Shown here: piece by piece, positions 5,508-20,000 of the stretch
How positions within the stretch are numbered: position 1 is the stretch's first letter
Layout: each line of letters begins with the position of its first letter
Source: Catajapyx aquilonaris
Taxonomy: Eukaryota
Assembly (NCBI GenBank): GCA_000934665.2
Contig: KZ538766.1
Location: forward strand, 60,860 to 80,859
DNA length: 20,000 bases
Direction: 5' to 3'
Made by a program: the position numbers and the translations under genes
Notes under the pieces: model-generated
Seen by the model: only the letters and a program-made list of their open reading frames with translations
Databases searched by the model: none
Told to the model about the DNA's origin: nothing

Positions 5508-7145
5508 TAGGTTGGTATTCTCGCAAAAATTTTTCCCTCCCTTCCATTTCGCTAAAATACATGTCCCTGTCTGCACATTCACAAGGCAATGTGCCACAAC
5601 GTAGGTTTTATTTTGGGAACGACAAGCAACAAGCCAGAAAAGGTTGGGGGTGGGGGTGGTGGTGGAGGAGAAACAAGGCAGTGTTGGCATAATTATGACT
5701 GCACAAAATAATCTTCTGGAGACCAAAGGTCGCTTAACTCTTAAGCAATCAATATTCACGTTTTGTTATCATGGACAGACAAAAAAAAAAAGAAGGCGTC
5801 TCACCTTTCATTTTGACCNCCCCCCCCCCCCCAACCTAGATGAGTCAAGGTGAAAATTAGTCACTCCCATTTTGGTTGAAAATCACCTGCCCACTTTTCA
5901 AGCAAATTAGTCACCTGTGTGCATTGGTCGCATTGCCATGACCTTTAAAATGGGCATTGCACTTCACTCATCATTTATCGTCACTGGCTGAAGGCCAGAC
6001 TGGACTAATATAACAGCAGGAAAAAAAAAAAAATCGGCAATTGCTCTGGCTCAAGGCCAGCACATTTCATTTTAAAAAAAAAAACGATGTCAATATCCCA
6101 CATGGTTGTCACTATTATAAATAAAATCTGCAGTGAAATATTCGCAACAAAATTATCCATTAGTCCTGATTTTTTTAACATGGCTAAACCCAGTAAACTC
6201 TAATTATTAAGTAATTGGCATTCCAGCAAGTGGACATAAAATTTAAAAGATTCGACACCTCCCCCTGCTAATCTGTTATCCTTGCGTCAACGTAGCATAT
6301 TTGGCAACCCTGTGGTTGCCAACAACAACCCACAGCGCGGCAAAATCCCACGTGCTCTCTCTCTCTACACACGTCCCCCCCCCCATCTCTATTCACACAC
6401 ACACAAAAACATCTCATGGCCCACCTAACCTTTGTCAACATTCTCCTTTATTTAATAACCCTCCCCCTCCATTGCATTATGGCCAGGAGGGGGGCAAAAA
6501 TATTGGATGGCTTCAATATTTAATTTGTGCTTTTTTTTCTCCCTTGGATATGGGAATGAGTTGGTCTACTTGAGCCTGAAAGTGTGTCCTGTTGGTTATG
6601 AATATTTTAATATGTGCAGCTGCCCCTGCTGTACAATTTCCCCCTCGCTTCGTAAAACTAGAGCGGCCAAAGTATCACACGCATTGTACCTGGTGCGGCA
6701 GTACAGCGGCTGATCCGGAATATCGCTTCAACAATTCCATAACAAGAGTCTACCGAATGCCGCCCTGGAAAATGTACAGTATCAACCCGCCAAGTAACCT
6801 TAATGTTCCCAAACTGCCACATTTGCCAGCTCAATCATGCTAAAAAATGCATGACCCACATACAAACGGCACCGTCTTCAAATCTTACAAGTGCAACCGC
6901 AGCGTACAACTTTTCTACGAGTATACAGTATCCAGCGGCTCCACCCATTATTATGCGCCAATAAAATTCAAGACATTCCTGTCCTTACTGGCTCTTAAGG
7001 CAGGTTAGGAGCATGTGACTCAGCAGGATACAGACACTTTTATCGTGAGACTTCTTTTGTTAATCAACATGACCCTCTGACACCACCTAATGTAACCTAT
7101 CATTCTGCAACCCACACATAAACATGCATGGGAGTGTCCCCCTAC

Positions 7146-7520
7146 CTTGCTGAATGCCTGCTGCGACTCCTTATCCTTCTTGGGTGAAGATGATGCACTC
7201 CCTGGGCTGCTGCCAGACCCCTGGCCTGCCCTGGGGCTGAGCCTGTATAGCCTTCCCTCGACAGTTATCAACCCTTTAATGGCCGCCTTCTTTGCCGCTT
7301 GCCTAAGCAACCTCCCGAGGTCCGAGTCAACATCTGACTCGACGGCATGAGACTGACGCACATATTTCTCCACAGAACGGGCCGTCGACCCATCCCTCTC
7401 GCCTAGTTCTCGGAGAGTCTTCACCACCACCTTTGTCAGATCAGTCTGACGGTTTATCCGGATAAGACGCGTCGACTGGGCACCAGGATCCTTGTACGAT
7501 TCGTGGCCCTTGTTGATGAT
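7146..7520 (-). CDS. KAT6A: KAT6 (MOZ/MORF/Enok) second coding exon; end of WH1 plus H15/linker-histone-like winged-helix WH2
   Basis: Acceptor ttttctgactcttacAG|ATC at 7521/7520. Translates IINKGHESYKDPGAQSTRLIRINRQTDLTKVVVKTLRELGERDGSTARSVEKYVRQSH...LLRQAAKKAAIKGLITVEGRLYRLSP...KKDKESQQAFSK, continuing the NKG..SYKDP motif in frame with exon 1. The GST..S.E.Y and G.LYRL motifs of the KAT6 H15 domain are present. Donor AAG|GTAGGG at 7145; 375 nt, phase 0. Confidence 0.93.
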
Positions 7521-8878
7521 CTGTAAGAGTCAGAAAATACGGTTATAAAAGGATTCAAACTGTTGTTGACATAAAATATTAGCATCCTTCACGAACACAA
7601 TGTAACGCTTTGGAAAGCAATATTTACACACAAAACGCCTTAGATCCATATTTTTAATAAGCTCAATTCCTCTAATTTTTTGTAAGGGCCGAATAGTGAT
7701 GTTATGAAGTGCCCACTTTGCATGTATACACACTGCCCACTTCTGAAGTGCTAATTATTGAAAGCATCTCTTTTACATGACCTCATCTTCACATTGATGC
7801 CCCATCCTAAAATAATACATACTCTACTGCATAGCTGCTGGTTATTCATTGTGCAAATATGTTATTCCACATACTATTTGCTTGGGCGCTACAAAAAAAA
7901 ATCAGTTTGCCTAATAACCTTGAACCCTCAGGCGGTACCTGGCAGCCTCGAGCATATAAATATACACTACAAGCATTATTGTTGCCAATTTTGCATCTGT
8001 TTTTAACATCACGCTATATCGACAGCACCTTTGCAATTTTTATTTTCCTGCCACTGGAATAGTCTTGAACGTTAAAAGTCTCGCCTGGTTCATTCAAGCC
8101 GGGGCCACTACTTCTAATATTGCAGTAACACTAGCATAACAGCCCAATTATTTTAAGCCACACTGCTGTTTATACTGCTTAATAAATCAACACTTCTGAC
8201 AACATTGTATTGTACAAGTTTCAAGGTACTTTAATCCTCTGAAGCAATAAACGGTGCATTACGTTCAATAAATTAACGCAAAATTCAAAGCTACCAGCAA
8301 CTTGTGGAAGTCACTTGTTGATGAGCGAGATGTACATAATTATTGTTAAAATTTTGAATTAGGACGCCCTGTGCATATTTCTAGTTAAACTTGACATCCG
8401 ATAAAAGTTGGGAATGGCTAAGGTTAAATGCAGTCATCTTATCTCGAGTAATAAAATTATGCATACGGTATGCCTTTCGCTAAACTGCACACACAAAATG
8501 TACTACAGAACCACGAGGCTGTTTCGGGCTTGAATTAAATGACAGTAAAATAACAGGGTATCCATTAAATTAAATGGCTTCCTTTAGATTACATTAAAAC
8601 GTACATGAATGTATACATCATAGCAAGTCATGCTGTATATTTATAGGCTCTCATTTTCATTACAAAGGACTATTACATTAAGATTCATCTCTGCTAGGAA
8701 TTAGAGCCGTAACTGCATTGTCTGATAGTGTTACTTGCTACGACAAATGTGATTTGCTCAACACGCAGTTTGACTGACAGCTGAGTAAAGAGCAGATGGC
8801 TCGATAGGTGGCAGTACCAATATTCCAACAAAGCGTCAGACGTGCTAACAATACAACTGCCCTATTTCTTCCAGTCAC
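7521..8878 (-). other. GT-AG intron between the two KAT6 coding exons (1358 nt)
   Basis: GTGACT donor and pyrimidine-rich ...TTACAG acceptor; splicing restores the continuous TVLK|IINKG..SYKDP motif. Confidence 0.9.
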
Positions 8879-9094
8879 CTTGAGCACAGTTCCATCTCGT
8901 ATGGCCCTGTCCAGCTGGTCCGAGATGGTGTCGGCTTCGTACTTGGTATGCTGCCGTATGGCGTTGCATATCCTCTCCGAGTTTGGTCTCTGCTTCTGTC
9001 CACGAATCTTCCTGATCGCGTCCAGAAACCACCGCACCCATGTGGAGGGGCTAGTCCCGCTCCCATCGTGATCGCGAAGCACCGTTTGCCTCAT
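8879..9094 (-). CDS. KAT6A: KAT6 (MOZ/MORF/Enok) histone acetyltransferase, first coding exon; SAMD1-like winged-helix domain WH1
   Basis: ATG at 9094 in gtggccATGa context. Translates MRQTVLRDHDGSGTSPSTWVRWFLDAIRKIRGQKQRPNSERICNAIRQHTKYEADTISDQLDRAIRDGTVLK, matching the KAT6 N-terminal signature (W.L.AI.K...QKQRP..ERIC.A....QL...DGT.LK). Donor AAG|GTGACT at 8878; 216 nt, phase 0. The KAT6A/KAT6B distinction does not apply to a single invertebrate ortholog (enok). Confidence 0.93.
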
Positions 9095-9207
9095 GGCCAC
9101 ACACACTCACTACACTGTGGTCTAACTTCTCATTTACAACGACGGATTATTATTCACATGATCCGGTCGCACTTTGCACTACGTCACACTCGCCATGTCA
9201 CGCCGAC
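9095..9207 (-). other. 5'UTR part of the KAT6 start-codon exon
   Basis: Strong acceptor ttgtgtctttaCAG|G at 9210-9208. Candidate upstream donors are AGG|GTAACA (9323) and CAA|GTGAGT (9639). Confidence 0.6.
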
Positions 9208-9950
9208 CTGTAAAGACACAAGGCATATTAATACACAGCGTAAGACATCAAAACTGTCATGACCGCAATGCAACTAGGCCTAGCAACAGAAAACTGGTTC
9301 TTTTTTTTTTTTTTGTTTGTTACCCTTCCCTCTTTTCCCTTCACTTTTGGAACGTCGTTGCAGCCATCTTGGGCCACCACACACAATATGATGAAAAAAG
9401 AACACTCCCAATGTTTTCCCCCTCCACTTCATCCATCCCCGTGCCCTACCGACGACAAACCCCGGCCGTTCGCTGCTAGGAAGCAACATAAAAAAAGGGG
9501 GCATAGAACATGTATCAAAGAAGCGGTACGGGGAGGCACTGCGTTGACATGTATTCCGAACAGTGGTACCAACCCGGGTTGGTTAACCCAGCCCGGTTAA
9601 CCACGTCACCCCCTTCTCCCACGTCACTGGGCAACTCACTTGGTGTTCCTGGGGAGTGACGTGCCCCGTATCACCACAGCACCGATCCGGTGGCCACGAC
9701 ACTTTTCCAACCATGGTTTTAAAGCCAATCCCAACGGGGGTGCGAGGGGGGGTGCAAACAACACAGTGTATGTAACTAGACTCCTTTCATTTTTGAGGAA
9801 GCTAGTCTCCCCGAGCAGAGAGTCCGATGATGATGGGGAGGGCAGGGAGGGTAGGGAGAGGAGGGGGTTGGAAGCCGCCCCCTTGTACAGCTTTACTACC
9901 CCCGGCCACCCCCCTAGAGTTTTCCCCCCCAATCAACAAAAGGTTAACAG

Positions 9951-9952
<2 letters not shown>

Positions 9953-9997
<45 letters not shown>
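9953..9997. repeat. (CT)n/(GA)n microsatellite
   Basis: About 22 uninterrupted CT units. Confidence 0.95.
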
Positions 9998-10000
<3 letters not shown>

Positions 10001-10189
10001 CTTTCTCTCACCCCCCTGTACACCCCTCACCGTACCCTACCCTCCCCTCCTCAATACCTGAAATTCACAAAATGGCCGACGCGCATCTGTTTCCATGCGC
10101 GGGGAGAGTGACGTCACTCACTCGGGGAGGGGGGGAGGGAGAAAACTGTTTGCGTTTTTGATCGGCATCTGTCCGACGACCGAAAGCGA

Positions 10190-10216
10190 AGGAGGAGGAG
10201 GAGGAGGAGGAGGAGG
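10190..10216. repeat. (GGA)n microsatellite
   Basis: About 8-9 GGA units. Confidence 0.9.
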
Positions 10217-10620
10217 GGGGCTAGGGCACGTGTATATGCAGCCGGGTTGGGATAATGTAGAGATGGGCGGGAGGGTTCAAACACCAACGCTCAGCAGAGC
10301 AAACACCGGGCCCGGTTCCGGAACCGGTCCTCTTGAAAAGTTGGGGGGTCAGGGTTGTCAATCCGAGTGGGTTGGTATTGCTTGGTTTGTTGCTCATCCT
10401 TTGGTGCCAAACAGAATTAGGGTTGGCACTACTGAGCAAGGATGGCTGGGGTTGGCATCCATTGCTCAGTAGTGCCAACCTGAATTACAATATTGCTGGG
10501 TTTGGTCTGAACTTTTGCCCAAAGTAGTGTCAAATTTATTATGGAAAACAATGTATTAATATATGTGTAGTGAGTGGATGTCCCCCCCATACGAGCCGAT
10601 GGCTCGCAACACGGGGCTGA

Positions 10621-10643
10621 AAATAAATAAATAAATAAATAAA
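10621..10643. repeat. (TAAA)n microsatellite
   Basis: aaataaataaataaataaataaa. Confidence 0.85.
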
Positions 10644-11465
10644 CAATATTGCTGGGTTGGTGCCAAAGAGTGGTCGGTGCCAATCCTTTGGTGTCAACAG
10701 AATTAGGGTTGGCACTGCTGGGCAAGGCTGGGGTAGTTGGCAACCATTGCTCAGTAGTGCCGACCTGAATTATACGTTGGTACTACTGAGCAATGGTTGC
10801 CAACTCCTACTGTTGGTTGGTATTTCTGGTTTTGCGTCAAACAGACGAATTGGGGGTTGGCACTACTGAGCATGATGGTTGGGGTTGGCTACCATTGCTC
10901 AGTAGTGCCAACCTGTATTATACGTTGGTACTACTGAGCTATGGTTGCCAATGGTTGGTATTGCCGGTTGGTGTGGGCAAACCGAATTGGGGGTTGGCAC
11001 TACTGAGCAAGTGGGCCGGATCTGGAACCATAGTCCACTTGAGTAGAACGGAGCTGCCAACCTCCAGCAATGATTGGCATCGCTCAAGAATGTGCCACAA
11101 TATCACAGGATGGCACTACTGAGCAAGATGGGTTGGGTTGGCAACCATTACTGCTCAGTAGTGCCAATCTGAATTATAACAATGTTGGTACTACTGAGCC
11201 ATGTTGGCCAACCCCCAGCAGGATTGATGTTTCTGGTTGGTGCCAACCGAATTGGGGGTTGGCCGAAGGGTTGGCACTATACTCGCTGAGTAAGTGGGAC
11301 TGTTCCGGAACCTGTCCACTTATTGAGTATAGGCTACATGGCAGGGCTGCCAACGCCCAGAAAGGATTGGCATTGCTCAAGAACCTCAAGAATGCCACTA
11401 TAGTTTAGGTTGGCACTACTGAGCAAGATGGGTGTGGTTGGCAACCTTAGACCATATATCATATA

Positions 11466-12022
11466 CAGGGTGCTCAAAAACTCGCGGAAAGTCGCCAGGT
11501 AGCCTGATAGGACTCGCAAAACTAATATAGGGATGTGGAAGTAGTTTTGGGCTAACTTGCATAGTTTTTGCGTACGACGCCTTCAAGATTTCGGCAGTTT
11601 CATGACGTCACATCCGCCTTGAGGCCCCCATTGCGTCATCATACATCTTGTTGTGGCTGTTGCCATTGGCACTGATTATTGTTGCGAATATTGTCAGCTG
11701 TGATTGTTGAGAAATAAACAACGATTTCAGTCTGGCAAGTGAGGTGTCGACTGGCCACAGATACCGTTGTTTATTTCTCAACAATCACAGTTGACAATAT
11801 TCGCACCAATAATCAGTGCCAATGGCAACAGCCACAACAACATGTATGATGACGCAATGGGGGCCTCAAGGCGGAAGTGACGTCATGAAACTGCCGAAAT
11901 CTTGAAGGCGTCGTACGCAAAAACTATGCAAGTTAGCCCAAAACTACTTCCACATCCCTATATTAGTTTTGCGAGTCCTATCAGGCTACCTGGCGACTTT
12001 CCGCGAGTTTTTGAGCACCCTG
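11466..12022. mobile_element. 557-bp palindromic non-autonomous DNA transposon (Tc1/mariner-type MITE or fold-back element)
   Basis: TA|CAGGGTGCTCAAAAA...TTTTTGAGCACCCTG|TA. Arms 11466-11723 and 11765-12022 (258 bp each) are colinear reverse complements with about 4 mismatches by eye; 41-bp spacer; no ORF. Confidence 0.9.
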
Positions 12023-12129
12023 TATATCATAAAAAGGTGTCAACTGAAATTGTCGCCATTTCTTTTTTTTCTTTTGCTGATGTCCAATATATTGGACATC
12101 AGGTCTCAGGAGGATATATATAACAAGGT

Positions 12130-12300
12130 GCCAACCTGAATTATGTTGGTACTACTGAACATCAACGGTTGCCAACCTGAATTATGTTGGTACTACTGAA
12201 CATCAACCGTTGCCAACCTGAATTATGTTGGTACTACTGAACATCAATGGTTGCCAACCTGAATTATGTTGGTACTACTGAGCATCAATGGTTGCCAACC
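12130..12300 (+). repeat. 41-bp tandem repeat, 4+ copies
   Basis: GCCAACCTGAATTATGTTGGTACTACTGAACATCAACGGTT starts at 12130, 12171, 12212, 12253 and (partial) 12294. Confidence 0.95.
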
Positions 12301-14962
12301 CCAGAGTAAGTAGTTGGTATTCCTGGTTGGTGCCAACGGTTGGCACTACTCAGCAAGTGGGCTGGTGTTGGCAACCATTGCTCAGTAGTGCCAACCTGAA
12401 TGATAATTATGTTAGTACTACCTGGTACTACCAAGAGGTACTACTTATTCCTGCTGCTAATTAGGCTAAACACCATGCTAAACACCGACGCCAGGTGGTG
12501 GTCCTCGTCCTGGAAATTTGGCCACAATGCAGTAACATCCGTCTTATTGTAATCCCCAGCATGTTTGTTATTACGTGATTGGAAAGAATATATATACGGT
12601 ATGTATAGTTTTAATGTAATAAAAGGAATTTGCAGTGGCACAAATTTTTTGCTTTGCATAAACACCTATATAGCCAAACAAAATTTGTGCCTCCAGAAAC
12701 GGGTCTCTAATAACGAGTTTGCACCATCCAATTATCAATTATCCCTTTCCTGCATTCTCTCCTCCTGTTAATTGACCTTACCTCCCTTTTTTTTTTGTCG
12801 CTTGACGCGTAATGAACTTGTTTTTCGCCTCTGGTCCAGTCACAAGCTATAGAGTTGAAGCTGCCAAGTAGAGATTTGCGATAAGTTTGATGTGGTTATT
12901 TTTACGACTATCACAAACTTTGCACAATAATTACGACATGTGCATGCGGAGTGTATGTTGGGCCATTATTTGCTGCTATTTTTTATTTAAAAAACGATGG
13001 TGTTTCCTCAGTGTGTTTGCTTTCTCTATAGTACCTGCAGGCATGATCCGTGTATACATATTGATGAGCTGTTTTAATTAACACTGTAGCATATGAGCTT
13101 ATAATTAGGGGGAATTAGTTTTTTACAAGCTAAAAATGTACTTAGCAAAACTGCAACGTTGATGGGGGACATTAACGTTAGAAGAAGCAATATTCTGCAC
13201 CCACCTACACAGCACGTTGCGTTGTATATTATTGAAATAACGAAAGTAATTTTAACAAGCAGTACACACGATGGTGCATTACCTAAGTCACAAGCTCAAA
13301 CATATAGATTATGAATATATTTATGGATTATTTACTCCAGTTAAAAGTTCAGGTAATAATATTTTTTGAAAAAATCACTCAGATGTCGCAGTAAAATATC
13401 GTTCGTAAGTGAATTATTTTCATTCAATACGTATTTTAGTTTGTTCCTTTTACTGCTTGGCTACTTCGCGTAAATAATTAATGGCAACATTTACATGCCC
13501 CTTGCTCCAAAACTCATTACAGTGAGATATATTACTGCGAACAGCAATTATCTTTTTGTCATTTTTTTGCAAGCCTGGTTCTGTCGTTTTTATACAAACC
13601 CTCCTCATAATTGGGTTGAAACAGTAGGCCTATAATTTACCTAATTATAAATACATATTCTGGAGTGCCAAGTCCCTATACTAAGGAAAGGTGTTACATA
13701 TTGTTTATTCCAGCAAGCAGCTTGAAGATAAGTATTAATTACAACTGATTATGACATTGATTACTTCCGACTCATTTTCTGTAATAAAATGATTTTTGTG
13801 ATAAACAATCCTTGATTTTTTTAAACAAATTTTCCCCTGGAGCTCCTATTTGAACTGAGACCTTGGCGTGAGTGCACCACCCTCAACACGTCCAATCAAA
13901 AGTTACTGCTTCTTAATTAATTCGCCTATATTGATTGACTTGCATAGCTGACTATATTATCTGGGAAATGTGATGTTAAATTCAGATATAACCAGTTGTA
14001 GTTATTGCGAAAGTAGTTTTGCATAATATATGGACAGTCATTCTTTACTGTAATGAGATAGTTTGCCAGCAATTTCCGGCGTGACTCATGCAGTACCTCA
14101 TTGAGGTTTACAAAACACGTAACAAACAATCACCTTCCCAAAATAGGCCAAAGTCTTCAGGTCGTAAACTTTGTAGTCATGTCTCTTCTCATCTGACAAC
14201 ATCTCGCACTCTCCTGAATTTACGATCAAGGTTATATTTGCACAGTGTTAAGATGAAATTGCAATCTTGGTCCCTCTATATATATTCTCTCTCTCCCACG
14301 CCTTTGTCACCTTTCAAGGGCTCTCATATAACTATATAGAGAGACTTGAGAAGAAAAATTTTCAAGGTGAAGCATTCCAGAAGGTCACTTTGCCCCCAGA
14401 CCGTGTTCTTTTTAGTCGGGCGATTGACCCTAATAAGGTACACTCCCACAAACATGTTTGGGAGAGTGTTGGAATTATGCGAGAGAAAATAAAGAGGGGC
14501 GTCTCATATAATAATGTTATACATGGTGAGTTTGATTGCTTTGATCCTTTCTGCAGAGTTGGAGGCCACTAACATTTTATTTATATCCGGTTGAGTGGGT
14601 TTTAGCCAGTCCTACCATGCCAAAGGGGCTATATATTTCAAATGCGACTGATGCCATTGTGTTGCTTAAATAAAATTGTCGCCGGAGAAAGGTACGTGGG
14701 GAAAGCCCTTTTTAAATATAAAAAAAATATTACAACTGTTGCTATTCATGACGAGATATGAGCCAAAATCGGTTCAGACTAGTTTGAAATGTGGACGAGC
14801 ACTTTGGACAATGTTTACTCTGACAACATTAAATGAATGAATGAAATATGGTTATCAAAAGTGACATCTGTCATGCTTTGACTTATTACTAGCACATACA
14901 ATGCAATATTCTTGTTATTTTTATGAGCAGAATAATTCAAGCTTTTAAATATAATTCTAATC

Positions 14963-15105
14963 GGCTTATTCTCTCCGTCGGATGTTTGTCAGATAGTACC
15001 GCTACCTTCCGCACGACTTAAGTGTGGCAGGAGTGTGCAGAGGGAGTAAGCGCCATCTATGCGTGAATAATAGTACTGCGTGGTAAATCGGGGGGCATCT
15101 CATTA
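14963..15105 (+). repeat. Dispersed repeat copy 2 (same family as 2588-2735)
   Basis: Direct similarity to 2588-2735 over ~145 bp; its start TTCTAAT.GGCTTATTCTC recurs at 19982-20000. Confidence 0.75.
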
Positions 15106-15959
15106 AAGTTGTGCGACTGTCGCTGCCATATACTGACAATAGGTTTTGCCAAATTTTGACAACAGGTTCACTAGTAACGATTATATCACTACTGATACAC
15201 ATCATTTTCATAATAATTAACTATCAAGGCCTGCTTCCACTGATGCGGACTTCGTGGACATCTCTGTTTCAGACTCACTCTTACAGTATAATTTGCTCGT
15301 ACAGTATATGAGTCTATTAATAGACTCGAGCAAGTCGCACTGTATTTCGCAGCATCTACATAAATCAATTAAAACGAGGAAAAGCGTCATATCTGCAGTG
15401 AAGAGCATAGAGACTGTGTACACTGCGTTTTTACTGTCCAAGAATAATATTCACTGTGCTTCGAATTTTTTTTAAATCCTCCACTGTCGGGACTGCAACA
15501 TTTTACCCCAATAACATGCCCAAAAACAGAATCAAGCGATGCTTTAACGCCGCTTTGTTGACCTCATTACATTCGCTCTGCCCTTTGATGTTTACAGGTA
15601 TATATACGCCGAGTTTTATACGGCGCTCCATGTTTTACGACGCTTCACATTATAGCCACCTTATCAAAAAATATAGCTAGAAATTGCATTTAAAAAAAAA
15701 ATTGCTAGAAAATCTTAACGGGAAACATTATCTCGATTGTATCTGCTTGAGTAGGCCACTTCTTCCAGTCAGTATAAATTATTTATCATCCAAGTTCCTT
15801 TAAAAAAAAAAAAAAATCTTACAGACGACAATCATCCTGTATTTTTAAGCCAGCGCAGAGATGCGTTTCTCTTCATCAGGCTTGATCTGAAGTCATATCT
15901 TCATAGACACAGACATTTAATGTCTCACGTTTTAAATTTTAATTAAACTTTTCCTTTTA

Positions 15960-16505
15960 CTTTATAACAGTTCAATATGTAATAGTTTAATATGTAATAG
16001 TTTAATAACAACAGGTTAATATATGTAATAATTAATGGCTATAATAGTCTAGAATCTAAAATATAATACCTTAAATAATAGTTCAACAGGTAACAGTTTA
16101 AGAGCAATAGTTTAATAAGTTTCATAGTAATAGTTTGATAATAATAGAATAGTTTAATAAGCTAATACCCTAATAATAGATAATAATAGTTTAATAGTTA
16201 TAGCTCTAAGTGTACTACTAGTTATTAGCTAAAGTATGCTACTATACACTCTAAGAAATGTCCGGGTTAAATATATTTATCCCGGACATTTCTTAGAGTG
16301 TAGTTATATAATTAGCTAAGTCTACTACTATAGTTATATAATTAGCTAAGTCTACTAGCTGCTAGTTGTAGTAATAGTTTAATAGTTCATTCATTACACC
16401 ACGGTATTGTCCCAATATTATAGTTTAACAGTTTAATAGTTAATGGTCCAATGTAACAGCTTATATTAGTTATATACTGTGGTTTAAAAGTAATAGTTGA
16501 ATAGG
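15960..16505. repeat. AT-rich low-complexity tract (TAATAGTTT-like) including a 30-bp tandem unit
   Basis: Recurrent AATAGTTTAA; TAGTTATATAATTAGCTAAGTCTACTA occurs at 16301 and 16331. Confidence 0.75.
16247..16300. mobile_element. 54-bp palindromic micro-MITE with CACT termini and TA target duplication
   Basis: TA|CACTCTAAGAAATGTCCGGG...CCCGGACATTTCTTAGAGTG|TA; the adjacent tandem unit shows the empty site. Confidence 0.75.
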
Positions 16506-16704
16506 CATTATAAGACCATGTTTTTTTTTATTTATCTAGTGCCCTTTTCCTTAGACATGTTAAGAGTTGATACATTTTTCTTTCAATCCGAGTTATTCTG
16601 ATTTCTGAGATGTCCTGATGCGATGTGCGGCCCCCGATGTGTGACATCATCATTTGGCGGGAAGTTCTCGGATTGGTGGAGCTTCTCCAGCGCGGGAAAA
16701 CTCA

Positions 16705-16706
<2 letters not shown>

Positions 16707-16738
<32 letters not shown>
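16707..16738. repeat. (CT)n microsatellite abutting the assembly gap
   Basis: 16 CT units running into Ns. Confidence 0.9.
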
Positions 16739-16826
16739 NNNNNNNNNNNNNNNNNNNNNNNNNNNNNNNNNNNNNNNNNNNNNNNNNNNNNNNNNNNNNN
16801 NNNNNNNNNNNNNNNNNNNNNNNNNN
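16739..16826. other. Assembly gap (88 N)
   Basis: Run of N. Confidence 0.99.
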
Positions 16827-18869
16827 GTTTGACGCAATGGCGCGATGGCTACCCAAAACTGTGAGGGGGGGCTCCCCTCCCGCCCCAGCACACACATCTT
16901 GCCAACAAAATGGCATCGATTTTAGTCCTGGTTCATGCACAAGCACCCCCGCTTGTCTGACAGGGCTAGATGGTAGAGAGGACTGAAGGGGGATGGAGCA
17001 GGGTGTAGTGGGAGGGGTAGGGGGGTGAAAGTGGGTGGGTGGGAGAGATCCTGCGAATCAATAAAGCTCTGAAACTCCCCCACATTTATAGTAACTCCTC
17101 CCAATCATACACCCCCCTGCACCTATAATATTAATCTAGGAAGAGCTCCACTTGAAATGAAAGCAGTGCAGACAAGAGTGTGATAAACAGCTTTTTATTT
17201 TTTTAAAAAAATTTGCAAATAAATTTTTATAACGAAATTTTGTGGTCATTACAAGATGATTAGCAATAATGTGACACCCCATATTACCGCTCTGAGTGGC
17301 CCTGAATATTTCAGTAGCAGATAACGAATCAGATTCCAGTAATAAACGGGTATGAAATGTGCAGTAAATTGCAATAATGTGGCCTATATCAGAACAATCG
17401 CAACACACGAATATCTATGCCTACTTCTATACAATTACACATTATTAAGTAAAAAAGAAAAATCAGATACCTGAAATGGGTAGTAAATGGTAATATGAAA
17501 ACAATCACAAGAGGAAAAAATGAATATGATTGAATTTGCCCCGAGTACTTATTAATTAAAAATATTATTTATCACTAATGTTCATATTTAAAAAATTACA
17601 ATTAGGCCACGATTTGGTTGTCCTCATCAGGCTTGATCTGAAGCCATATTTTCATAGATATTTAATAGCTAATGTTTCTTTTTTTTAGCTACAGGCCCAA
17701 GTCTATAGCCATGGTAACCAGCAAGCCTGGACAAACCAACAATCAAACCTGGACAAACAAACAAAATCTACCTTTTATTATAATAACAGATTAAATATGA
17801 AAATAATTATTACAACACATGCTGGACCAAATATTTAAGCTAGATTCACAACAAGAGCAATATATATATACAAGTATTTTTACACAGGCTTATGCCAACA
17901 AAATTTTTGTACAAATATTTTCCATGATTAGTTGTAACAGTGTAACTTATTACCGCAAAAAGGAACTGATTGAAATCCGAAACCCTATAACCTACATTTT
18001 ACCGTCCTTGCCCAAGGCAACAGTAATTCACTAATCAAATCCTGATTACAGCTTCATAACTTGTTATTGTAAGACTCTAACCGTAAATCATTAGGCTCCC
18101 ACTTCTCTCTCCTTTTTTTATGTAGCCTCCAGCACTGCATTTTGATACATTTTTTTTTGATGCAAGCTATGCACACTTTTACTTGCAAAAAAAGGGGTGG
18201 ATATAGAAAATGCTATAAACCGCTATACCCCTCTCTTTTTCCACTATATAAAAATTTTCCACCTGATGTAGCGCTATATTGGTGGGGACGCTCCACGAAA
18301 AAGTAATCATGTCCTGCATGGAAGCGTATAAACTATATTGATTTGGGAGGCCCATGTTGTGCCCCGATCCCCCCCTCTACTCTTTGAGAGTCTATCGACA
18401 AAATGTGTGTGTCCGACACAATGTTCATGATTTGCACGCGTAGCGTGGCAGAACAGAATCGAGCTTTTTGAAAAACAGCTTTGGCGATGACTATATCGGC
18501 CAACTGCAAATATGGACTCTCTCTCTGATGAATCGAAAAACCAGGCCAAAGTTTACACTGGGTTTATTTAAGGGGGTGGAAAAAGGTTCTGGTGTGTTCA
18601 TAAATGGGGCTATGTTTTGTGCAGAAGTTGGGAAGAAAATCGGTAGATGGCGCACGCTGCTTCCTTCCGTCATTCTATAGCGGCACGACATGACGGAGGC
18701 ATTTTAATTATATGTAGGATATTCCCCACAGAAATGAACCGGAAACAAGATCGGCAAATCATGCGAGCGTGATTCGAGTAGACGTTTTTTCATTGTCAGT
18801 GAAATTCAAATTGGACAACAGTGACATAATGTTGTCAGTAACGACCAAGGACAGCAAAGATATAGAATG

Positions 18870-19155
18870 TTGTCAGTTTCATTTCCGGTTTCCAATGTGC
18901 CCAAAGACTTTGTAACTTTGACCTTGGTGGATAGAGTGGACCCGGATAACCGGAAGTGGCAGGTCACCGGAAGTTGGCCATGAAACCTATTTTTGGTCAC
19001 GCTGAATCCGAATCCGAAAACAGTTTGCCACTATCTCCTGCGGTTTAGGTCCTGATACCTGTCCACAGACGGACAGACGGACAGAGCCGTTTTTTTGATC
19101 GAGAAAAAGTCAGAAAAAGGCGTGTATTTGTCCTCATTTTGCTCCATAAAAGGTC
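18870..19155 (-). mobile_element. Helentron/DINE-1-like element, minus copy (left boundary approximate)
   Basis: Reverse complement reads ...GCCTTTTTCTGACTTTTTCTCGATCAAAAAAACGGCTCTGTCCGTCTGTCCGTCTGTGGACAGGTAT...TTCGGATTCGGATTCAGCG, similar to 19863-19975. Confidence 0.55.
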
Positions 19156-19458
19156 TGTATATGATCTGAAGTGTACCCATGGCAACTTTGCATGGCAACG
19201 GATCATCAAGTGTGATTAGAGCAGTGGAGATCTTTCTCTTCTCTAATCCTGTGCACCATAATTGCGGTTCTTCCCCCTCGTCCCCCTCGACTTCCTTTTG
19301 AAGTGGGCCGTTTAGCTTCTTAGCGACCAAAGTTCGCAGAAAGGAAAACAAGGGGGGGGGGGGNTTACCATTTTAATAATAAAAAATTTAATCCTATTCT
19401 ACTTTCAGGGAGAGTGAACTGCGCTTGTTCGGGAGCAGATCGTTAATTTTAAAGTCTA

Positions 19459-19700
19459 CAGGGTGTTTCATTATGTGTTATGCTTTTAAAGGGGGAATTA
19501 TAGTGTGCACCAGAGAATCGCTTTGCATATATAGGCTTGTTATTCAGATATAATTAGTTTGAAAGAGATCAAATGATTCTCTGATGCTCATCAGAATATA
19601 AGTATATTGACGAAATGAAACACCTTGTAGGCACGGGTAGATTTTGCGTGGAATTAGAGTTGGGGCCCTTTTGCAGCCGCCGATTTTCCGTCTAGTTTTC
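19459..19700 (+). mobile_element. Possible mariner-type terminus / fragment (TA|CAGGGTGTTTCA...)
   Basis: Same TA|CAGGGTG terminal motif as the two complete MITEs; no partner TIR seen and the right boundary is unknown. Confidence 0.35.
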
Positions 19701-19862
19701 TCACATTATTATTCAAACCGGTCCAGAAAGCTAATTGGATTACTTGGAAATTACCAGCCGAAGACATATCGCAGCACCGCATTACTAAAGTCGTCAACAT
19801 GCAATAAATTTGGGGAAAGTCAACTAACTAATGCTGATTCAAATTGATTTTTTTTTGTAGTG

Positions 19863-20000
19863 AGCCTTTTTATATGTAGAGCAAATGGAGGATGCCCTTT
19901 TATAGACTTTTTTTCTCATCATCAAAATAAGTTTTATAGAACGGTTCTGTCCGTCCGTCTGTCCGTGGACATGTATTTTTCTTCTAATAGGCTTATTCTC
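19863..20000 (+). mobile_element. 5' part of a Helentron/DINE-1-like element with (GTCY)n microsatellite, truncated by the window edge
   Basis: AACGGTTCTGTCCGTCCGTCTGTCCGTGGACA at 19940-19971, leading into the GGCTTATTCTC repeat; homologous to the minus copy at 19056-19155. Confidence 0.6.

Follow-up and report, generated by a model that had tools for sequence, protein, structure and literature searches.

A hairpin-rich inverted-repeat array upstream of a KAT6-type gene in Catajapyx aquilonaris, possibly a locally grown minisatellite

Results and Discussion

Gene neighbourhood and layout of the array

The window (the whole 20-kb stretch of DNA that was analysed) carries two minus-strand exons of a KAT6-type gene to the left of the repeat array, the MYST catalytic exons of the gene lying outside it. 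The best solved relative of the exon at 8738-9106 is KAT6A (7y43_A, E 4.7e-14), and a winged-helix domain followed by a weak H15-like match is the order that fits a KAT6 gene (MOZ/MORF/Enok). The array begins ~1.2 kb upstream of the first coding exon, in intergenic DNA directly upstream of the GC-rich 5' region of the gene. The original prediction had placed it immediately upstream of the KAT6 promoter; the KAT6-type gene is confirmed there as the two minus-strand exons. GC skew turns from -0.18 to +0.18 near 9.8-10 kb, a flip that would be expected of divergent transcription.

The array had been given as 10370-12420, and it does occupy that interval, but its true start lies further left, near 10290, and it fades near 12456. 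Some 820 bp of the 2,050-bp interval is later transposon insertion and not array, and setting aside three such insertions leaves a net length of ~1.3-1.4 kb. The features are as follows, F and R being the two arms of a hairpin and F' a second partner of R downstream.

7020-7529, minus strand: next KAT6-type exon, weak linker-histone (H15-like) match (Pfam Linker_histone, E 3.7e-4; 21.1 bits, below the cut-off of 22.4)
8738-9106, minus strand: KAT6-type exon, N-terminal winged-helix domain (Pfam SAMD1_WH, E 3.6e-20)
10290-10366, no strand assigned: decayed leading unit, related to the interior of the U4/U6-type hairpins (10315-10334 matches 11302-11321 of U6 at 90% identity)
10367-10502, plus strand: U1, linker and F-loop-R hairpin (arms 10421-10439 and 10462-10480, perfect over 19 bp)
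10503-10642, plus strand: retroposon-like fragment ending in (AAAT)5.8 (AAAT repeat at 10621-10643)
10659-10811, plus strand: U2, linker, F 10707, R 10747, F' 10775 (R-F' arms 30 nt, 93% complementary)
10812-10952, plus strand: U3, F 10855, R 10895, F' 10923 (148-bp direct repeat of U2, 86% over 98 nt)
10953-11222, plus strand: higher-order unit a (~270 bp, aligned with unit b), variant hairpin U4 (F at 10992, R arm diverged) and U5 (F 11108, R 11151, F' 11183)
11223-11446, plus strand: higher-order unit b, variant hairpin U6 with the F arm (11408) and loop of U7, colinear with unit a as far as 11446; at the point of insertion U7 lacks its R arm
11447-12128, no strand assigned: insertion block breaking U7, a palindromic MITE and a second high-copy piece (~12029-12117), from self-comparison and contig depth
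12129-12300, plus strand: tandem repeat of 4.2 copies of 41 bp at 96% matches, in which an R-arm end, a spacer and an F' module make up the unit
12293-12456, plus strand: U8 (F at 12338, R at 12378), followed by a decayed tail with three GGTACTAC remnants, from module matches and folding

Three direct periods are nested within one another, of 148 bp (86% identity), ~290 bp (the colinear units) and 41 bp (4.2 copies, 96%), and U1, U2, U3, U5, U8 and both ~290-bp units all stand in direct orientation, not mirrored. The high identity among the 41-bp copies suggests a recent local expansion.

A single module in both orientations

When the 20-kb window was scanned, the 19-nt module GGTTGGCACTACTGAGCAA gave 16 matches at no more than three mismatches, all between 10421 and 12396, where chance predicts a mean of 0.01 and 0 of 200 dinucleotide shuffles reach 16. 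Its 16-nt core TTGGCACTACTGAGCA is present in 19 copies with at most two mismatches each, 14 on the plus strand and 5 on the minus strand, so that the predicted recurrence of the module and its reverse complement more than 15 times is borne out; the window holds no further matches outside the array. From left to right the copies run + - (10421/10462), + - + (10707/10747/10775), + - + (10855/10895/10923) and + (10992), then + - + (11108/11151/11183) and + (11408) up to the 682-bp insertion block, beyond which four + copies in the 41-bp tandem repeat (12146-12284) are followed by + - (12338/12378). A core of 16-17 nt is retained in 16-19 of the 19 copies, and the positions around it vary. At its full length of ~29 nt the module has inverted ends (GTTGGCA, 15 nt, TGCCAAC), and CACTAC is present inside every module, not at a terminus. 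Of the TTGGYA/TRCCAA hexamers, 46 fall in the array (~2.1 kb), the nested MITE accounting for two, and 28 in the remaining 17.9 kb, a density ~14-fold higher in the array. The letters of the module were absent from ~8.4 million full texts.

Competing hairpins

All five stem-loops that had been named, at 10421, 10707, 10855, 11108 and 12338, exist, each measuring 60-62 nt between its outermost stem bases, the loop taking up 21-24 nt. Folded as RNA on both strands they lie far below shuffled sequences in energy (z -4.1 to -11.2, better than all 100 shuffles each), and as DNA they reach z -4.7 to -11.2, with 0 of 200 shuffles as good; the U1 hairpin marks the extreme, at z -11.2 on both RNA strands and as DNA. 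The DNA hairpins being stable, a cruciform or protein-binding role, one of three candidates among which the original prediction did not choose, would be physically plausible. The R arms have a second, better partner downstream in F', with arms of 28-33 nt in three units (the R-F' hairpin of U2 folds at -54.8 kcal/mol, z -12.9), and the hairpins are therefore mutually exclusive alternatives. Over 10659-11446 the plus strand folds at -379.5 kcal/mol (z -14.6) and the minus strand at -317.6 (z -12.4), but shuffles of the same interval likewise fold better on the plus strand (-271 versus -229), and the stronger plus-strand fold is largely compositional.

What is conserved among the units

Across five units the F arms are 89.5% identical in pairwise comparison, the R arms 95.8% and the 5' loop halves 52.9%, with the flanks at 31% and 64%. 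This bears out the prediction of conserved stems and variable loops only by half, the 3' loop half standing at 92.7%, as high as the arms. The conserved unit is a ~30-nt module and not the stems; that the stems look conserved can be explained without selection, by the conserved block being the duplicated module. A search for compensatory changes between units, proposed with the original prediction, gave no covariation: 282 of 500 shuffles reach the observed score (23 pairs, 5 units), a comparison of low power among paralogues of one genome. The outer AATT helix has a single both-sided change, and the 19 core pairs are without any. The inner 14 bases of the R arm, TGCTCAGTAGTGCC, are invariant in all five units, and together with the five perfect 19-mers this could reflect constraint or recent copying alike. 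Non-Watson-Crick stem positions number 13 across seven hairpins, and the transition-type mismatches among them, read on the plus strand, are seven G:T against one A:C, or ~5 versus 1 independent events, which is not significant; the lean is in the direction that would be expected if a plus-strand RNA or a plus-strand DNA hairpin mattered. Between the variant hairpins, U6 carries ~3 extra bases relative to U4 in both of its arms, so that CTATACTC pairs with GAGTATAG.

Later insertions and copy number in the organism's DNA

Three DNA contig sets of one sample (X1-X3) were surveyed, with contigs placed at no less than 80% likeness; such contigs show presence, not absence, and copies below that likeness or left unassembled would escape. 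Three nested insertions are matched by hundreds of the organism's contigs. A perfect 16-bp direct repeat on both sides of the retroposon-like fragment (10487-10502 and 10643-10658, 100% identity) is read here as a putative target-site duplication, and the bin at 10472-10688 has ~4x the summed contig depth of its neighbours. The MITE consists of two 275-nt arms (11457-11731 and 11757-12031) that are 97% complementary around a 25-nt centre. Summed depth over the whole insertion block, 11447-12128, is 8,000-20,000 against 31-40 in the flanks (1071 contigs in run X1), and contig ends are loose there, the other copies having flanks of their own.

The array itself behaves as a single locus. In the bins from 10689 to 11339 depth is exactly that of the one bridging contig (36.9, 29.4 and 13.7 in X1, X2 and X3), and the bin at 12208-12424 is near flank depth (31.7, 23.4 and 16.8). 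No second contig in X1-X3 matches the array at 80% likeness or above, the bridging contig alone covering it. In the same survey, fragments down to 61 letters in length were placed, and summed depth over the nested transposons reached 6,000-20,000. The view that this is not a simple dispersed repeat therefore held up, and at this likeness the module is not a high-copy transposable element or satellite spread through the contigs. A dispersed TE or MITE family is accordingly rejected at 80% likeness or more, with one bridging contig for 10689-11339 and a summed depth of 8,000-20,000 for the nested MITE. On reading, the borders near 10290 and 12456 present no matching ends or duplicated flank, which is weak evidence since both are decayed.

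Transposon, binding sites or small RNAs

Subterminal regions of CACTA elements, in the part of PMC8978399 used here, comprise several hundred nucleotides of 10-20-bp units in direct and inverted orientation, a description that the array matches well with its 19 copies of a 16-19-nt core, 14 on the plus strand and 5 on the minus strand. It might accordingly be the subterminal repeat block of a decayed, low-copy cut-and-paste DNA transposon, later expanded locally, with the modules as transposase-binding motifs in both orientations, in the manner of CACTA/En-Spm-type or fold-back-type elements; CACTAC is part of the module, and three transposons are nested at the array. We nevertheless consider this origin unlikely. 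Compared with CACTA/En-Spm elements, the array lacks a CACTA inverted repeat at an element end, a 3-bp target duplication, a second end, a transposase and further contig copies. No terminal inverted repeats or target-site duplication were apparent at either decayed border on reading, no second, opposed block is present in the 20-kb window, none of 70 frames (at least 55 aa, 9.5-20 kb) reaches a Pfam cut-off (a non-autonomous copy would lack the transposase gene anyway), and the DNA contigs hold no other copy at 80% likeness or more. The higher-order units are direct and not mirrored, and the high identity within the array is a sign of recent local copying, not of an old relic. The fold-back transposon suggested at the outset is disfavoured on the same grounds, namely direct units, no opposing arm in 20 kb, no transposase in 70 frames and no other copies seen. 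Like Tetris of Drosophila virilis, as portrayed in the portion of PMC4079207 drawn on here, the array has non-coding modular repeats able to lengthen and a strong fold-back potential, but fold-back elements have two long mirrored arms and many copies where the array has direct units, no mirrored partner and one locus seen. The same retained core amid variable surroundings (16-17 nt in 16-19 of 19 copies) and the ~14-fold hexamer enrichment would also suit candidate sites for a sequence-specific, probably dimeric, protein, in an element upstream of KAT6 that would act like an enhancer, boundary or insulator; the copies would load many protein molecules, or extruded cruciforms would be the target. 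The position directly upstream of the gene's GC-rich 5' region agrees with such a role, and inverted repeats near promoters can, according to the section of PMC13100816 relied on here, grow by template switching and serve dimeric factors. Yet the full palindromic NFI-type site has 0 matches at one mismatch or fewer in the window, likeness among paralogous copies in one genome does not show selection, and the insertions split the array; we regard a binding array as quite unlikely.

Serial hairpins ~150 nt apart with very low folding energies also invite comparison with tandem hairpin precursors of small RNAs, whether an hpRNA/endo-siRNA locus or a young miRNA-like cluster, in which a plus-strand transcript divergent from the KAT6 promoter region would have each 19-33-bp stem diced into small RNAs. 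The precedent is hp-CG4068 of Drosophila, where tandem hpRNA repeats come from one transcript and copy number shifts fast between species (20, 9, 14 and 10 copies in four species, in the part of PMC10317233 consulted); many tandem hairpins at one non-transposon locus and evidence of rapid copy-number change are common to both, but for hp-CG4068 the small RNAs, their dependence on Dicer-2 and the target gene mus308 are documented, whereas the array has short stems (19-33 bp) and no candidate target was found for it. The better fold of the plus strand over 10659-11446, the lean of mismatches to G:U on that strand and the GC-skew flip, if it marks divergent transcription, all point the same way, but the fold advantage is largely compositional and the G:U excess is not significant. 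No covariation accompanies the stems (5 units, 23 pairs), and one hairpin is broken by the MITE. Rfam 15 returned eight matches at E of 1 or less, every one well short of its gathering score, the best being mir-558 at 39.3 bits against 90, and the module letters were not found in the full-text search. The hpRNAs share homology with a target gene, and none was found for the array among contigs at 80% likeness or above, where a ~20-nt site would escape, or elsewhere in the window. The structured-RNA or small-RNA candidate of the original prediction thus has no positive support, and we judge a small-RNA precursor improbable. One form of it would be a young, lineage-specific tandem hpRNA or proto-miRNA locus of ~8 hairpins on a plus-strand, divergent (upstream-antisense) KAT6 transcript, diced to UUGCUCAGUAGUGCC-type small RNAs. 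Such a locus would owe its origin to template switching and not to a transposon or gene duplicate, and it seems distinctly improbable. Made1 is a high-copy dispersed element behind the MITE-derived miRNA hairpins of the mir-548 family. It shares with the array a hairpin of ~60-80 nt with two inverted arms around a short loop, and Rfam gives a weak mir-548 match to the array (21.9 bits against 90), but Made1 is dispersed at high copy and the array module is not (contigs, at least 80% likeness).

A possible local inverted-repeat minisatellite

The array is a non-coding repeat block at one locus, real and rich in hairpins. We favour, with about even confidence, a minisatellite reading, in which inverted repeats confined to this locus multiplied by local duplication, both direct and inverted, and are probably neutral. 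On this account one ~30-nt module, with the core GTTGGYACTACTGAGCA and the ending TGGTTGCCAAC, would have given rise to the array through repeated local copying in both orientations. The inverted copies would most likely have arisen by replication template switching, giving nearby reverse complements and homogenised arms, and the direct copies most likely by slippage or unequal exchange, giving the nested periods of 148, ~290 and 41 bp. Template switching, in the portion of PMC8794818 cited here, produces repeats in reverse complement along with perfect hairpin stems and mends stems already present, and the extra bases in both arms of U6 relative to U4 fit that process. Either DNA strand, and any RNA across the array, can fold into alternative hairpins of 19-33 bp. 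Whatever seeded it, the array is most likely selectively neutral and unstable DNA; it has tolerated insertions, one of which took away the R arm of U7.

If the minisatellite reading is true, the locus offers a small, clean example of how dense, near-perfect hairpins can grow from one ~30-nt seed without a transposon. Hairpin-RNA genes, or site arrays for dimeric factors, are thought to arise from raw material of this kind. It also carries a caution, since conserved stems in a repeat array can simply mark the duplicated module. Should the array instead be transcribed and its RNA diced, or should a factor bind it, it would count as a regulatory element specific to its lineage, beside a major chromatin-modifier gene.

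A described example with the exact layout of the array was not found, print having been checked only by the module letters. As in a minisatellite, the repeats lie head to tail at one locus and neighbouring copies are similar. Nested local direct periods, similar neighbours and non-coding sequence are shared with minisatellites and with template-switch (quasipalindrome) mutation as treated in the parts of PMC8794818 and PMC7202029 used here. Like template-switch products, the reverse-complement copies lie from a few to ~25 nt from the stretch with which they pair, and U4 and U6 differ by a coordinated change in two arms. Ordinary minisatellites are head-to-tail only, whereas the units of the array carry two or three modules in alternating orientation, which yields the competing hairpins.

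The hairpin array and its anatomy

The original prediction described a 19-nt module (GGTTGGCACTACTGAGCAA) recurring more than 15 times in alternating orientation, arranged as serial ~60-nt stem-loops, and both parts of this description held. A scan of the window returned 16 matches at up to 3 mismatches, all within 10421-12396, against an expectation of 0.01, and none of 200 dinucleotide-preserving shuffles reached 16. The 16-nt core (TTGGCACTACTGAGCA) occurs in 19 copies with no more than 2 mismatches each (14 on the plus strand, 5 on the minus strand), and modules follow one another as +-, +-+, +-+, +, +-+, +, an insertion block, four + in a 41-bp tandem repeat, and +-. All five predicted stem-loops, at 10421, 10707, 10855, 11108 and 12338 (units U1, U2, U3, U5 and U8), are present, spanning 60-62 nt with loops of 21-24 nt; each folded better than 100/100 shuffles as RNA on both strands (z -4.1 to -11.2) and than 200/200 shuffles as DNA (z -4.7 to -11.2). 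The array is real, has an unusual layout and, in the DNA contigs at 80% likeness or more, was seen at this locus only.

The conserved element is not the 19-nt stem but a ~30-nt module, GTTGGYACTACTGAGCAATGGTTGCCAAC, with inverted ends of its own (GTTGGYA ... TRCCAAC), found in three contexts:

Class A: forward arm of the predicted stem-loops; the module stops after ~20-25 nt and passes into a G-rich stretch
Class B: reverse arm; the full module reversed, so that its first 11 nt form the 3' half of the "loop"
Class C (F', the second forward partner): full forward module, GGTA always replacing GGCA, 1-16 nt downstream of B (11 nt in U2)

Because A and C both match B, every B copy has two possible pairing partners. 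A-B pairing encloses a loop of ~21 nt with 19-20 bp and a further short outer helix, and B-C pairing joins arms of 28-33 nt that are 85-93% complementary; B-C is the more stable in U2 (-54.8 vs -40.5 kcal/mol), and the two are about equal in U3 and U5. An A-B-C triplet with its linker makes up a 148-bp unit (U2 and U3 are 86% identical), and two larger colinear units of ~290 bp, from 10953 to 11222 and from 11223 to 11446 onward, also contain a variant hairpin, U4 or U6, that keeps the base and differs in the interior. Toward its right border the array repeats the B-end/spacer/C segment as a 41-bp unit (4.2 copies, 96% matches), which suggests a recent expansion. A contig joint skipping 123 bases (three 41-bp units) in two DNA runs (X1 and X2) may be an assembler collapse of the repeat and is not taken as a polymorphism. 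The variable 5' half of the hairpin loops carries short plus-strand G tracts (GG/GGG, 1-3 bases between) at 10440-10455, 10874-10890, 11127-11141 and 11427-11441, which might form weak two-layer G-quadruplexes.

Nested insertions and copy number

An array was predicted at 10370..12420 and is confirmed there, but its borders shift: it begins further left, at ~10290, fades near 12456, and ~820 bp of the predicted interval are later insertions rather than array:

10503-10642: retroposon-like fragment, 140 bp, ending in (AAAT)5.8, between perfect 16-bp direct repeats (10487-10502 / 10643-10658)
11447-12128: insertion block in place of the U7 reverse arm; a palindromic MITE plus a second repeated piece
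11457-12031: the palindromic MITE of that block; 25-nt center between arms of 275 nt each that are 97% complementary

By its signature, the fragment at 10503-10642 is probably a 5'-truncated retroposon or SINE insertion, and the bin that holds it has ~4x the contig depth of neighboring bins, so that a few related copies exist. The MITE has the ends TACAGGGTG...CACCCTGTA and AT-rich flanks with TATATCATA on either side; it is very abundant in the DNA contigs of this organism, where other copies keep the TATACAGGGTG / CACCCTGTATA ends and differ in their flanks. Summed contig depth reaches ~16,000 (vs ~35) over the piece at 12029-12117, which contains a perfect 26-nt palindrome (12079-12104), and ~6,500 (vs ~35) over a 49-bp piece at 12477-12525, whose other copies run into different sequence on both sides, marking it as a fragment of an abundant element.

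These depths come from placing contigs of three (X1-X3) of the four DNA runs of one sample, and of one run whose kind is not given (X5), on 7000-13500 at at least 80% likeness. The original prediction had named a high-copy transposon or satellite, scattered genome-wide, as the contrary outcome; this describes the MITE and two other nested or nearby pieces, with summed depths of 6,000-20,000, and not the array. Across bins 10689-11339 the summed depth at this likeness is that of the single bridging contig (X1 36.9, X2 29.4, X3 13.7), and bin 12208-12424 is about as deep as the unique flanks (31.7, 23.4, 16.8). Given that X1 alone placed 1071 contigs, with pieces down to 61 letters, and that short and abundant repeats were detected, dispersed relatives of the ~150-bp unit or of one hairpin should have shown. 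No such family was seen in X1-X3 at this threshold; contigs speak for presence rather than absence, copies below 80% likeness would escape, and a single sample gives no check independent of the assembly. We also rejected a cluster of tiny Made1-like MITEs: the contigs show no dispersal, and the left flanks do not agree from unit to unit. Contigs of X5 cover 7250-7491 and 9120-9271, in or adjoining KAT6-type exons, and transposon pieces, leaving the array uncovered, a result given no weight for or against.

Conservation and pairing

Identity between pairs of A-B units (five units)

Forward arm: 89.5%
Reverse arm: 95.8%
Loop, 3' half: 92.7%
Loop, 5' half: 52.9%
Flanks: 31% and 64%

The proposal that stems are better conserved than loops is borne out against the 5' half of the loop and fails against the 3' half. 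As the latter is as conserved as the arms, conservation follows the duplicated module, including half of the loop, and not the paired positions as such. Nor did the search for compensatory changes between units favor selection on pairing: across 23 pairs in five units the paired fraction of cells is 90.4%, a level matched by 282 of 500 column shuffles, and the sole change on both sides falls in the outer AATT helix. One coordinated change was found between the variant hairpins, where U6 has ~3 extra bases in both arms relative to U4, letting CTATACTC pair with GAGTATAG; this could reflect selection or arm-to-arm copying by template switching, a process described in PMC8794818 as creating and repairing perfect stems.

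Origin of the array

The best-supported reading, to which we give about an even chance, is that local duplication, both inverted and direct, multiplied a single ~30-nt module into a minisatellite of inverted repeats, which is probably neutral. Three transposon insertions have hit the array, and its right end was probably still expanding recently. A cluster of small-RNA hairpins is an unlikely alternative. Tandem hpRNA loci are the closest functional analogue of the array. One of them, hp-CG4068, has copy numbers of 20, 9, 14 and 10 in four species of Drosophila (PMC10317233); such loci are defined by small RNAs and target homology. Rfam at E up to 1 gave only miRNA-like matches below threshold (best mir-558, 39.3 bits vs a gathering score of 90). 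The 13 non-Watson-Crick stem positions of seven hairpins (7 G:T on the plus strand, 1 A:C and 5 of transversion type) gave no significant strand bias (7 vs 1 raw, ~5 vs 1 allowing for inheritance by duplication). The stretch 10659-11446 folds better on the plus than on the minus strand (-379.5 vs -317.6 kcal/mol), but so do its shuffles (-271 vs -229), and the z-scores are therefore alike (-14.6, -12.4).

Descent from the subterminal repeats of a transposon is unlikely. The layout resembles CACTA subterminal regions, which PMC8978399 describes as made of 10-20-bp units that run both directly and inverted, but the array shows no CACTA repeats terminating an element, no second end, no transposase and, in the contigs at 80% likeness or more, no further copies; Pfam matched none of the 70 frames of at least 55 aa from 9.5 to 20 kb at cut-off, including those right of the array (12.5-20 kb). 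In fold-back elements such as Tetris (PMC4079207) the arms mirror each other and copies are numerous, in contrast to the higher-order units of the array, which are all direct and seen at one locus only. An array of protein-binding sites is likewise unlikely; the full palindromic NFI-type site had no match at up to 1 mismatch in the whole window. The module and its variants were not found in print by a letter search of ~8.4 million full texts, and the two-arm hairpin pattern had no match in metagenome contigs, where an 18-nt module matched 14 loci, once each with no second module at up to 3 mismatches; these 14 matches are chance.

Neighboring gene and surroundings

The KAT6-type exons sit left of the array:

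8738-9106, minus strand: KAT6-type exon with a winged-helix domain (Pfam SAMD1_WH, E 3.6e-20; best solved relative KAT6A 7y43_A, E 4.7e-14)
7020-7529, minus strand: KAT6-type exon whose linker-histone match is weak and falls slightly short of threshold

The array was predicted immediately upstream of the KAT6 promoter; as placed by the two exons, it does lie upstream of this gene. The stretch 9.0-10.5 kb is the GC-richest part of the window (0.52-0.55), with a GC skew sign change near 9.8-10 kb (-0.18 to +0.18). Here (TC)28 (9953-10009) and (AGG)9 (10190-10216), at both of which Logan contigs break, separate the array from the first KAT6-type coding exon; the skew flip around them resembles a divergent promoter pattern. 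A sigma-70 promoter and terminator scan was disregarded as inapplicable to an animal genome. Open frames across the array (e.g., 10432-10782 on the minus and 11043-11405 on the plus strand) were rejected as coding, having no Pfam match at threshold; the lack of stop codons in the module, as read in these frames, is what keeps them open. An assembly gap of 91 N at about 16740-16830 adjoins (CT)16, and frames across it are artifacts. At 15965-16357 there is a cluster of AT-rich short tandem repeats (~30% GC, periods 8-30 nt, with units like TAATAGTT), which is unrelated to the hairpin array.
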